This document shows, piece after piece, positions 1-49,360 of a DNA stretch of 58,123 nucleotides. This stretch comes from a virus (lineage: Duplodnaviria > Caudoviricetes). Under the pieces are notes generated by a model that was not told the DNA's origin, made no database searches, and saw nothing but the letters and a program-made list of their open reading frames with translations. Each line of letters starts with the position of its first letter. Position 1 is the stretch's first letter. The translations under genes were made by a program, and so were the position numbers. Where the stretch lies: the IMG/VR virus record IMGVR_UViG_3300028025_003736, positions 1-58,123 of that record. One strand, written 5' to 3'.

Positions 1-352
1 CTTATTAAAGAGTCAGAAATCTCCAATGCCCTTTTTCACAATAATTAGTTAATTAACAGACCATTAACATATTAGTTTTTTTTGTAATGTTAGGGTACTC
101 AGTAGTAGAAATCGGTTTTCCTTTCTGTAGAGCTGAAACAAAAAATAATAGGGTCCCTTACGGTGTTACATTCCTCATCCAATCCCTACCTTTACTTTTG
201 CATATGTTTAGTTAAGTGATGACTTTACTGCTATATAATACTCACTTAATATATATAAGAAGAAAACCCCATAACTCTATGATTTACAATACTAAGATTC
301 CCCTATTAGGGAATTAAATCCCTGTGTATGGAAAATAAGAGTATATTTGAGT

Positions 353-34930: not shown

Positions 34931-34961
34931 TTTGGTCAGAATCCTTATATATGTACCTTTG
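34931..34961 (+). promoter_or_regulatory. Bacteroidetes primary-sigma promoter
   Basis: TTTG (34931-34934), 19-nt spacer, TACCTTTG (34954-34961); overlaps an inverted repeat at 34906-34942. Confidence 0.65.
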
Positions 34962-34983: not shown

Positions 34984-35421
34984 ATGGCAAAAGTAAACAG
35001 AACAAACAGCGAACTATTGAACTTAGTTCAGGTTATTAATATCCTTCTTAGGGATGATAAGTTTAAACAAAACAACACAAAAGGAGTAAAGAAGCTTCAA
35101 AAAATTGGAGAGAAAATAAAGCCTTTTCTAGATTTGTACAATGAAAAAATTGAAGATTTAAGGCTAGATAACGCAAATGTAGATGCAAGTGGGAGTCTAT
35201 TATTCAACGAAAAAGGAGAATATTTGTTTTCAAAAGATGGTCTTAAAAACTTGAATAAGTCTATAAAGTCTCTATTGAATGAAACATTTGAGTTCTATCA
35301 ATTAACATTCTCAACAGAAGGAATTGAGGAATATGATTTTTTAAATGGATGGGTAGAAGGACTTGATTTTCAACAAGTTGAAGATGTTTCATCTGATGTA
35401 ATTGAGGCAGAAGTTATTTAA
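34984..35421 (+). CDS. hypothetical helical protein
   Basis: 145 aa with good start context, own promoter and downstream terminator. Confidence 0.6.
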   Translation: MAKVNRTNSELLNLVQVINILLRDDKFKQNNTKGVKKLQKIGEKIKPFLDLYNEKIEDLRLDNANVDASGSLLFNEKGEYLFSKDGLKNLNKSIKSLLNETFEFYQLTFSTEGIEEYDFLNGWVEGLDFQQVEDVSSDVIEAEVI

Positions 35422-47459: not shown

Positions 47460-47762
47460 CTAATTGGTTTCATATATTTCAATTGATTTTGAATAAACAG
47501 TTTCTCCTTTAGCCTTAAAGTCATCATCAGATAGACACATATTCCAATAGTCGTGTATATGGTGTTGTACTGTGCTATGTTCTGCATATCCAATAATCTT
47601 AGCTACTTCTTCCATCGTTATGCCTCCTACTATATATAGTGCCCAACACGCCATCTTCCTGGGCATAATATATTGTTTATATCTACTCTTATTATTGTAG
47701 TAGTTTTTATCTACTCCAAACTGTTCTGCTATGTAGTCTAGTACTTGTTTGTGCTTTTCCAT
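47460..47762 (-). CDS. DnaA domain IV-like HTH protein
   Basis: KSRYKQYIMPRKMACWAL...TMEEVAKIIGYAEHSTVQH matches the DnaA C-terminal pattern. Confidence 0.75.
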   Translation of the reverse strand: MEKHKQVLDYIAEQFGVDKNYYNNKSRYKQYIMPRKMACWALYIVGGITMEEVAKIIGYAEHSTVQHHIHDYWNMCLSDDDFKAKGETVYSKSIEIYETN

Positions 47763-48030
47763 TAGATTATTGTTTTTAAACTATTACTGAATATAGATTT
47801 GAGAATAGGTGGTCAGAACAGAAGTTGCCCCCTTCCCCCTAAAGAAAACAACCTCTGACCTATTACGTCATATGAGTTATCGAATGAGGTAGGCTGTATA
47901 GGGATAAAGTTACATCCACACTATACATTTAACAGATAAGGCACGGGAATCTTTGGTAAGGCCATGCCTATATATTCCTTATACTCGGAACTTAGAGAGA
48001 CAGACGACTGCTTGCTAACCAATCCAAAAC

Positions 48031-48125
48031 AAAAAACCCACACAGGTCGCAGCTGTATGGGTTCAATGAAATGCGGGTTGCATTAAATCAAACCCGAATT
48101 CATACTGCGACTATCAATTCGGATT
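48031..48125 (-). promoter_or_regulatory. two-hairpin kissing-loop leader; second hairpin is an intrinsic terminator
   Basis: Minus-strand loops GTCGCAG (48105-48111) and CTGCGAC (48046-48052) are perfectly complementary; G-U pairs indicate the minus strand; T-run follows the second hairpin. Confidence 0.75.
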
Positions 48126-48132
48126 GACAATA

Positions 48133-48164
48133 CAAAAGTAAATATACTTTTCTTATAATCCAAA
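48133..48164 (-). promoter_or_regulatory. Bacteroidetes primary-sigma promoter
   Basis: Minus strand TTTG, 20-nt spacer, TACTTTTG; ends a few nt upstream of the first hairpin. Confidence 0.75.
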
Positions 48165-48308
48165 TTTAAAATAAAAATTAGCTGTTCTGGTACAGCAAAA
48201 CCTCCCTGCTGTCTTTATTGGGTAAAAAATAAACAACACACACTGAACCCAAATATCAAGACAGCTATGTCTTGCCAACCCCGAGACAAGGGTACAAGGC
48301 TTCATACA

Positions 48309-48941
48309 TCAGTGTGCTGTAATACCTAGCTTACGGAACATAAACTTGACCTTAGTAACTAAGTACTCTATGTCATTGTCGTTATGTAACGTATAATCAA
48401 AATCGTAATTATCTAAAGCAATCTCAGATATGTGTCCATTAACTGGCTTAGAATAAGGCCTTTTAACCCTAACAACTAATCCACCGCACTTTTTTATTTG
48501 TTCGGCTTCGTTAGGGAACCTGCAGTCTGTAACAACCCAATTTGTATTGCTCTTATCAACTAGAGTATTTGTCTTACATGACATACATATAGACATAGTT
48601 GATTCTTTATTACATACTGAGCAAACCTTCTTGAAGCTTATAGACCTGTTATACTCTGATATAAGTGCATTAACCCAAGCATCTTGGTGAAGGTTGTTCC
48701 TGATGGCATCAGTGCCTAATTTCTGAAGGAAATCCCTTACGGTCATGCCGTAACCTTCTAGCGTCATTTGCTTGACTAAATGGTCCTCAAAATCACTTAC
48801 AGATAGTCCTGTCAACATGCTCGCTATTTCCTTCAGCTTGCCCGAAAACTTTTTAACATGCCATTCAGGATATAACTCACATATTGTCTTTCCAACTGCG
48901 TCTTTGCCCGAGCCTGCGTAACCTGACAATGCAATAATCAT
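48309..48941 (-). CDS. deoxynucleoside monophosphate kinase with inserted CxxC-CxxC motif
   Basis: IIALSGYAGSGKD, RDFLQKLGTD, VVTDCRFPNE, HISE. Confidence 0.85.
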   Translation of the reverse strand: MIIALSGYAGSGKDAVGKTICELYPEWHVKKFSGKLKEIASMLTGLSVSDFEDHLVKQMTLEGYGMTVRDFLQKLGTDAIRNNLHQDAWVNALISEYNRSISFKKVCSVCNKESTMSICMSCKTNTLVDKSNTNWVVTDCRFPNEAEQIKKCGGLVVRVKRPYSKPVNGHISEIALDNYDFDYTLHNDNDIEYLVTKVKFMFRKLGITAH

Positions 48942-49360
48942 ATAATTTTAATTTGTTTATCTAACCCTAATTCTTTAATAAGTCTATTGTGTATGTCTAC
49001 GATTCCATTATTTATCTCAGGGTATACTTCGCTGTATCCTTGGCATGATGCTCTATTGGAGTATAGTGTGGTGTGGTCTCTTAGTCCAAACATATTGTAA
49101 ATCTTTACAGGAGAAAGCATTTCTTTTTCCATTAGAAAGTACTGAAGCCACACCTTCTCTGTGCTATTGTTACGTCTACCCCTGGAGAACAACTTATCTT
49201 TGGCACATCCGAAGTATTCTGATATGGCAGTAGCCCATATGTCTACGGCCTGGGTGTCCCTAGTTACGGACTCGTCTACAAACCTATTGACTTTTATTCT
49301 AGTTCCATAGGTGTTTTCTATATACCTAGAGAACTCGTTGATGTCATCAATCATAGCCAT
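48938..49360 (-). CDS. second DnaA domain IV-like HTH protein
   Basis: LFSRGRR...YFL...IYNMFGLRDHTTL. Confidence 0.65.
   Translation of the reverse strand: MAMIDDINEFSRYIENTYGTRIKVNRFVDESVTRDTQAVDIWATAISEYFGCAKDKLFSRGRRNNSTEKVWLQYFLMEKEMLSPVKIYNMFGLRDHTTLYSNRASCQGYSEVYPEINNGIVDIHNRLIKELGLDKQIKII

Follow-up and report, generated by a model that had tools for sequence, protein, structure and literature searches.

A promoter-proximal phage RNA module with two covarying, mutually complementary hairpin loops

The locus and its features

The window, by which we mean the whole stretch of DNA that was analysed (58,123 nucleotides), is a 58-kb linear virus record with an estimated completeness of 54%. 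Up to about 39 kb its plus strand carries structural genes, and beyond that point the replication and recombination genes follow on the minus strand. The module described here lies in a gap of 546 nt between two of the latter, and the flanking genes on both sides are co-directional with it. A preliminary description had placed a promoter, three hairpins and a pair of fully complementary 7-nt loops in this gap, and their positions and sequences on the minus strand were found to be correct. In the order of that strand the features are:

48309-48941, minus strand: upstream gene, a deoxynucleoside monophosphate kinase (Pfam PF21448 and phrog_139)
Between the genes at 48309-48941 and 47460-47762, minus strand: intergenic gap of 546 nt that holds the module
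48181-48196, minus strand: terminator-like hairpin closing the upstream operon (terminator scan)
48161-48164, minus strand: -33 box TTTG of a Bacteroidota-type promoter (read in the sequence)
48133-48140, minus strand: -7 box TACTTTTG (TAnnTTTG), 20 nt after the TTTG
48122-48128, minus strand: GTCAATC, at which the RNA probably starts; it may also be the 5' strand of a closing helix, P0
48094-48122, minus strand: hairpin H1, stem of 11 pairs (arms 48112-48122 and 48094-48104) with one G-G mismatch
48105-48111, minus strand: loop L1 of H1, GTCGCAG, 7 nt
48086-48097, minus strand: TCGGGTTTGATT, highly conserved, made up of 4 nt from the end of the 3' arm of H1 (48094-48097) and the linker that follows
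48070-48084, minus strand: middle hairpin AATGC-AACCC-GCATT
48034-48064, minus strand: hairpin H2, the putative terminator hairpin, stem of 12 pairs (arms 48053-48064 and 48034-48045)
48046-48052, minus strand: loop L2 of H2, CTGCGAC, 7 nt
48026-48036, minus strand: U-tract TTTTTTGTTTT, directly after H2
48018-48024, minus strand: GATTGGT, tentative 3' strand of P0
47763-48017, minus strand: long structured non-coding leader or domain, ending at the ATG of the DnaA_C-like gene
47460-47762, minus strand: first gene after the leader, a 100-aa protein with a DnaA C-terminal helix-turn-helix (Pfam PF08299, E 5.7e-10)

L1 and L2 are exact reverse complements of each other and lie on one strand, 52 nt apart. 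The 111-nt RNA folds with -37.6 kcal/mol as compared to -22.3 ± 2.9 kcal/mol for 200 shuffled sequences (z -5.28), none of which was as good. Each locus has one copy of the module, and so has each of the four virus records that were searched whole, one of them with terminal repeats.

Homologous copies and covariation

The two flanking proteins were used as queries for relatives and gave one distant locus and none. The first relatives were obtained with the 604-aa primase encoded 4.6 kb downstream of the module on the same strand, which gave 11 loci. In five of these the blastn match to the window was nearly confined to the non-coding stretch 48168-47766, with an identity of 90% in L004 and 73-78% in L005-L008, and the flanking genes were matched in L004 only. 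In the first alignment the loop pairs were different or identical between sequences, and exact complements every time. A scan with a pattern inside the module then gave 31 loci on viral contigs and 27 distinct cores (one locus cut by the contig end and nine duplicates were excluded). A second scan, with an outer-arm pattern, gave 52 loci, 26 of them new, and a covariance model confirmed 23 of these 26, the other three being unrelated chance matches. One metagenome scan gave 49 loci. Altogether, viral and metagenome contigs yielded 100 homologous copies of the module, of which 81 are distinct, and a covariance model built from the 27 cores matched all 100 sources supplied. The search patterns fixed parts of the scaffold, so its invariance is partly forced, and the loops lay outside every pattern. 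The TCGGGTTTGATT stretch was fixed in the first pattern and free in the second, and only three distinct sequences differ there.

The loops were fully complementary in all 27 sequences of the first set, and in 79 of the 80 distinct rows that could be judged in the larger set (79 of 81 overall). The two rows that fail are L129, which is cut off at the contig end, and L099, which is a true mismatch. About 25 distinct loop words occur. All seven pairs of the loop-loop helix show two-sided changes, with 97.6% of the cells paired in the 81 distinct rows (97.8% in the first 27 sequences, again with two-sided changes at all seven), and in the 81 rows not a single one-sided change or G-U pair was seen. 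The unpaired cells come from 6-nt loops with unevenly placed alignment gaps and from L099. Conservation of the complementarity had been proposed as a check in the preliminary description, and the relatives strongly bear it out.

Both loop partners sit in hairpins with support of their own, as the H1 and H2 stems covary and contain G-U pairs. Over the 81 distinct rows, two-sided changes occur at 5 of the 11 pairs of H1 (91.6% of the cells paired, G-U present), at all four pairs of the middle hairpin (98.8% paired) and at 2 of the 12 pairs of H2, where another six have one-sided changes, mostly G-U (96.3% paired). G-U was found in 31 rows at one H1 pair, and in 50 and 37 rows at two H2 pairs. 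The structure as a whole is paired to 95.4% in the distinct rows, as compared to 83.0% in shuffles and 32-45% in slid controls. We regard it as virtually certain that the three-hairpin structure with its loop-loop pairing, as read from this covariation, is real.

Between H1 and H2, AACC is present in 78 of the 81 distinct rows. L075 and L078 have a longer hairpin without the AACC loop in place of the middle hairpin, and their linker reads GGGTCTGATT. GACC just ahead of the new hairpin could pair with GGTC, and this may be a compensatory change for a contact between the linker and the middle loop.

Two palindromes with an inverted 7-bp core might also act as DNA, either as recombination or inversion sites or as a cruciform at an origin. 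The layout resembles the 11-7-11 of tyrosine recombinase core sites, the core pairs are strictly Watson-Crick, and genes with DnaA domains lie near in the window. However, a G-U pair in a stem becomes C-A on the opposite strand, so that the many G-U pairs would be mismatches in a DNA cruciform, and the arms of H1 are unlike those of H2. The segment between the loops was inverted in none of the 31 loci found with the inside pattern and in none of the 49 found with the outside pattern; furthermore, the promoter and the U-tract are conserved and the gene context varies. A DNA element was already disfavoured, and we find it very improbable. The stem covariation with its G-U pairs, the fixed -7 box, the kept U-tract and the lack of inversion imply that the module is a minus-strand RNA, with a predicted start near 48128.

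Promoter, terminator-like hairpin and downstream domain

TAnnTTTG, with a TTTG at -33 about 19-21 nt upstream, is what we take to be the consensus of the Bacteroidota primary-sigma promoter. The pattern has four matches in the window as compared to 3.61 expected, i.e. not above chance. Among the 27 distinct relatives the -7 box is exact in 25, with TAnnTTCG in the other two, and it always lies 4 nt ahead of GTC; the -33 TTTG is at the expected place in 16. The conserved blocks in other contigs also start at the -7 box. Seen in this way, transcription would start a few bases past the -7 box. The only other match to the promoter pattern in a gap between listed ORFs of at least 80 aa is found at 34931-34961 on the plus strand, ahead of an ORF at 34984.

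H2 was detected in a terminator scan (stem of 12 pairs with 5 G-C, loop of 7 nt), which gave two sites between 47000 and 49000 as compared to 0.6 ± 0.8 expected. It had been described before as terminator-like, and this agrees with the relatives: within 9 nt after the stem (GTGTGGG), 7-8 Ts are found in 81 of the 81 distinct rows. The U-tract is kept though the sequence beyond it is unrelated between the different types, and H2 with its U-tract has, as judged from these letters, every mark of an intrinsic terminator. In other runs, the match of contigs to the window is limited to 48026-48128 and their flanks are unlike on both sides, which makes the block from the promoter to the U-tract a separable unit.

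On inspection of the window, a second promoter box was not seen anywhere from the U-tract to the next gene. Should there be none, the downstream genes would depend on read-through, and this favours a role in termination. L014, L019, L037, L063 and similar loci have a second exact -7-like box (e.g. TATCTTTG or TAACTTTG) directly after the U-tract, and the downstream RNA may thus have its own promoter in those phages. Only an imperfect version of this box is present in the window.

We tentatively suggest that the module is a promoter-proximal termination gate, the fold of which is locked by the loop-loop helix, and to this reading we would give a little less than an even chance. The first ~100 nt would fold into the three hairpins, L1 would pair with L2 through seven Watson-Crick pairs, and H2 with the U-tract would act as an intrinsic terminator, so that many transcripts would end at the U-tract as a compact RNA of ~100 nt. 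A competing central helix, GGGUUUGAU with AUUGAACCC, could occupy the terminator's 5' arm, and the loop-loop helix would prevent this by locking the terminator fold in place. On read-through, the transcript would include the long structured leader as well as the downstream genes. Termination, the competition between folds and the intra- or intermolecular nature of the loop pairing are in this account what we infer.

The modelling compares two folds. Fold A consists of H1, the middle hairpin and H2; in fold B, L1 and L2 form an ordinary helix around an extended central hairpin, which is predicted to occupy the 5' arm of the terminator. In the modelling, a competing central helix can form from TCGGGTTTGATT and ATTGAACCC (48059-48067). 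The mean energy over the 27 sequences is -32.1 kcal/mol for fold A as compared to -31.6 kcal/mol for fold B, with the kissing energy uncounted; fold A is lower in 15 of the 27, and the energies are close in all of them. Transcripts cut ahead of the H2 3' arm adopt the central helix in the folding model. Fold A exists, since H1 and H2 covary; close to the top of H2 there is also a two-sided change from A-U to U-A that would give a mismatch in fold B. As for the central helix, it is 99% pairable with zero covariation, and this is uninformative, as it is mostly fixed by the search pattern. L075 and L078 have an uncompensated U-to-C change in the central helix.

A leader of ~95 nt was proposed in the preliminary description. 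The part of this that stands is a promoter-proximal three-hairpin RNA of ~100 nt, but the non-coding region does not end there; it continues for ~270 nt past the U-tract, and it is structured. In every locus examined that shows a downstream ORF, a stretch of 198 nt or more, free of same-strand ORFs of at least 60 aa, follows the module, and in the 268-nt leader of the window every frame is closed, even with one stop reassigned. The DNA of the downstream domain in the window is conserved to 73-90%, and the flanking genes are not. It contains, at 47790-48017 (minus strand), a structured domain of ~230 nt in which the stems covary; one hairpin is an optional insertion and another, GGTCAG...CTGACC, is G-rich. 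RNAalifold predicted 53 pairs in the downstream domain, 11 of them with two-sided changes, from 11 of 17 sequences, the near-identical ones being dropped. Rfam had no match to the domain at 47790-48017 or to the other downstream types. At least four unrelated downstream sequences, i.e. the window type and at least three others, occur behind the same module, and the window type travels with the module into unrelated gene contexts, such as those of the window and of L023, where it lies behind a terminase gene.

Two further observations concern this region. In L019, a tRNA-like stretch lies ~30-170 nt after the module, between it and a domain of the window type, with GGTTCGAATCC as T-arm and an acceptor-like pairing; neither ARAGORN nor Rfam made a call on it. 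In the window, TGTGGATGT and TTATCCC are found at 47901-47920 (minus strand), inside a covarying hairpin of the downstream domain, and each is a 7-of-9 match to the DnaA box. Genes with a DnaA C-terminal domain lie near, at 47460-47762 and, more weakly, at 48938-49360.

Across the downstream types, a 7-nt complement of the RNA 5' end is found again 5-31 nt past H2 (GUCAAUC with GAUUGRY). At least six contiguous pairs of this kind are found in 38 of the 55 sequences with enough flank, as compared to 78 of 715 control windows (11%), which suggests a closing helix, P0. It covaries at one position in one lineage (A-U versus G-C in L018) and is otherwise invariant; L114 and L125 have the same A-U/G-C change, located beyond the 5' strand of P0. 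An outer extension of P0 into the promoter was rejected, as it has zero covariation and a cognate value of -7.22 versus -7.06 for permuted pairs, and 1218 of 5000 permutations did as well or better.

Conceivably, the module forms the 5' domain of an RNA that is longer and structured, with the whole non-coding RNA of 370-700 nt as the unit. P0 (GUCAAUC with GAUUGGU) would then close a four-way junction, the U-tract would be a linker, and the arms would be fixed by the loop-loop helix as a tertiary contact. This would agree with the long ORF-free stretch after the module, with a window-type domain that covaries and accompanies the module into unrelated gene contexts, and with the recurrence of the 5'-end complement. 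However, a U-tract kept in 81 of 81 distinct rows is unneeded for a linker, at least four unrelated sequences follow the same module, and P0 is nearly without covariation, with an outer part that fails the permutation test. In addition, the 7-nt linker of the L020 type makes it hard to fit both P0 and an intramolecular kissing helix of seven pairs, as estimated from helix dimensions. We consider a longer RNA as the unit to be rather unlikely. Some points also go against the termination gate. Kissing is possible only after L2 has left the polymerase, which is late for a decision on termination; P0 beyond the U-tract, if real, would mean that the functional RNA extends past the putative terminator; and the genes behind the module are unrelated between phages, so that no common regulated function can be named.

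Gene context, loop divergence and known systems

The module lies among replication genes in the window and in other loci, and the preliminary description had placed it upstream of the replication/recombination genes. The gene behind it encodes the DnaA_C protein in the window and Erf in L020, two methyltransferase genes follow it in L005, and in L023 and L014 it is followed by phrog_32199, a family of unknown function; in L023 a large terminase gene is located just upstream. Among 86 non-redundant loci, 28 have the module just behind the large terminase gene and about 18 have it in a primase context. No protein family is common to all 86, and the most widespread cluster occurs in 39 of them, at varying positions. 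The tie to these genes does not extend to relatives in which the module follows the large terminase gene or precedes Erf or methyltransferases; the context varies between phages, which means that the link to replication genes is particular to the window phage.

No match was found in cultured phages by blastn, even at E 10, or with the covariance model in Maribacter phage Panino. Bacterial and archaeal genomes gave nine pattern matches, none of them with a model match at the site, and their number fits the estimate for chance. The nearest cultured relatives of the primase infect Flavobacteriia (Maribacter, Cellulophaga and Flavobacterium), with identities of 23.6-35.5% among the 15 records listed, which fits the Bacteroidota type of promoter. 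The carriers of the module are uncultured phages that use Bacteroidota-type promoters.

Over all pairs of sequences the divergence is 0.430 in the loops as compared to 0.161 in the scaffold. Between L007 and L025, one difference is found in 78 scaffold positions as compared to 10 in the 14 loop positions. A specificity code would be consistent with this, but strong constraint on the scaffold together with recombination at the module explains it as well. L005, L006 and L007 are nearly identical in the alignment over 435 nt from the U-tract onward, and ~5-8% different upstream of it, with 11 differing positions in the 100-nt module, which suggests a recombination boundary at the putative terminator. 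Diversifying selection on the loops was discarded as an explanation, since it is inseparable from recombination. L099 (positions 22-136, minus strand, of a 1.6-kb contig) is the only copy with non-matching loops. Its L1 is GTAGGAG as in L021 and its L2 is ACGCAAC as in L020, and it is either a natural recombinant or an assembly chimera.

One way to use such loops would be an intermolecular address code, in which each RNA, free or nascent, recognises only its own kind and builds dimers or rings, or brings about termination that is specific for the phage. We find this idea doubtful, though with a real chance of being right, and its two forms can be weighed separately.

In the first form, a stand-alone RNA of ~100 nt would associate with itself, L1 to L2 between molecules, into dimers or rings in the manner of phi29 pRNA or of ROOL and GOLLD, and the variable loops would keep the RNAs of different phages apart. 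The module has its own promoter and its own putative terminator, covariation is blind to whether pairing is within or between molecules, the loops diverge far more than the scaffold, and in 28 of the 86 loci the module is just behind the large terminase gene. There is also a precedent, as a kissing loop of ROOL was first read as tertiary and proved to be quaternary (PMC12286853). Contrary to this, the ~30-nt linker can, by estimate, span an intramolecular kissing complex just as well, and no partner protein family is common to the loci (39 of 86 for the widest cluster). The long downstream domain is left unexplained, and the divergence of the loops may be neutral compensatory drift on a constrained scaffold, with L005, L006 and L007 looking recombinant at the module. 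Self-association is in our opinion unlikely.

The second form is a self-antisense control in trans, similar to that of the P4 CI RNA or the P1 c4 RNA. The terminated 100-nt RNA would kiss nascent leaders from the same or a co-infecting phage and set the frequency of termination, and the loop words would define specificity groups. About 25 loop words on a nearly fixed scaffold would fit this, as would L099, the one mismatched natural copy, which combines an L1 and an L2 of different types, and the architecture of P4, as outlined in PMC4825925, is the same in principle. On the other hand, there are no lysogeny genes among the 30 window ORFs scanned, there is no match to the C4 model, isrK reaches 13.2 bits versus a threshold of 50, and a third target site was not found in the flanks. 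No site complementary to the loops occurs there at a conserved position, with the exception of a coding site shared by four related loci. The loci's own loop words were found 56 times in the flanks as compared to 35.7 for the words of other loci, and the excess comes from an A+T-rich word. Control in trans seems improbable to us.

The covariation of the module is unusually clean, with seven Watson-Crick loop-loop pairs in about 25 versions on a nearly fixed scaffold, and the module is new in the sense that it has no Rfam 15 entry or description in the literature searched. For structural biology it is a small natural kissing complex with many natural variants, and for engineering it provides a ready candidate set of orthogonal loop pairs. 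For phage biology it is a portable cassette of promoter, RNA and putative terminator, found at the head of operons in two or more unrelated genome contexts, and it points to RNA-based control in phages with their nearest cultured relatives infecting Flavobacteriia, which is a little-known area. If the address code were true, nature would already have made about 25 orthogonal 7-nt loop pairs on one scaffold, and a sense RNA would recognise itself without an antisense gene.

With gathering scores, one tRNA was the only Rfam 15 match in the window and 12 loci together, and no tRNA or tmRNA was found in the window. Permissive scans gave only sub-threshold matches to generic leaders and sRNAs (trpB, rnk leader, RybB, isrK and ARRPOF), and full-text literature searches gave no description of the module. 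The c4-like motifs that the preliminary description had named for checking gave no match in the Rfam scan either; the c4 antisense RNA family is below the gathering score and absent among the matches up to E 10. In c4 the target sites lie at the ribosome-binding site of the gene behind, whereas L2 of the module is the loop of the terminator-like hairpin, 284 nt ahead of the ATG at 47762. The P4 CI RNA/IsrK was also rejected, on the isrK score given above.

In P4, complementary sequences in a promoter-proximal untranslated transcript lead to premature termination before the replication genes, according to the account of this in PMC4825925. The module is like the P4 and P1 RNAs in that it is phage-encoded, promoter-proximal and untranslated and has short complementary sequences in one transcript. 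The specificity of P1/P7 c4 resides in a few bases. Unlike in these systems, both partners of the module are hairpin loops, one of them the putative terminator's own loop, and the module has no target at a ribosome-binding site and no lysogeny genes among the scanned ORFs of the window.

Antisense attenuators of plasmids, of the pT181 and pIP501 types, and kissing complexes such as ColE1 RNA I/RNA II with 7-nt loops share with the module the complementary 7-nt loops and the link to a leader terminator, and in those plasmids the loop words are specificity determinants. There the partner comes from the opposite strand and complementarity is automatic; in the module both loops are on one strand, which means that the complementarity must be kept by paired mutations.

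The phi29 pRNA model of Rfam had no match. Two complementary loops of pRNA pair between identical molecules, as stated in PMC4201828. The module is likewise a phage RNA with two mutually complementary loops. The loops of pRNA are 4 nt and those of the module 7 nt, however, and the phages are ~60 kb with unrelated gene content.

ROOL, GOLLD and OLE had no model match in the window or in 12 loci. According to PMC12286853, ROOL and GOLLD are non-coding RNAs of phages or prophages with unknown function; covarying kissing loops, some of them quaternary, are present in all three RNAs, and GOLLD has one conserved and one variable part. In contrast to these the module is much smaller, has its own promoter box and has a putative terminator inside the unit.

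Purine and lysine riboswitches have stems that covary, junction bases that do not change and two arms in contact through their loops, and their output is a terminator; the module resembles them in this. A riboswitch was rejected, as there is no match to an Rfam aptamer and the genes behind the module share no function; moreover, unlike in the aptamers, all seven loop bases of the module pair and are free to vary. The best near-match in Rfam, the trpB motif RF04312, was rejected as well (27.7, 24.2 and 22.4 bits versus a threshold of 59, with non-pairs in the aligned stems). It too has two hairpins followed by a terminator with a U-tract, a likeness of generic leader shape. We rate the module as a phage RNA, either a structured leader or a small RNA, in which the kissing contact is tertiary or quaternary; it resembles the same-transcript antisense systems of P4 and P1, the kissing-loop attenuators of plasmids and pRNA, and is a member of none of them.
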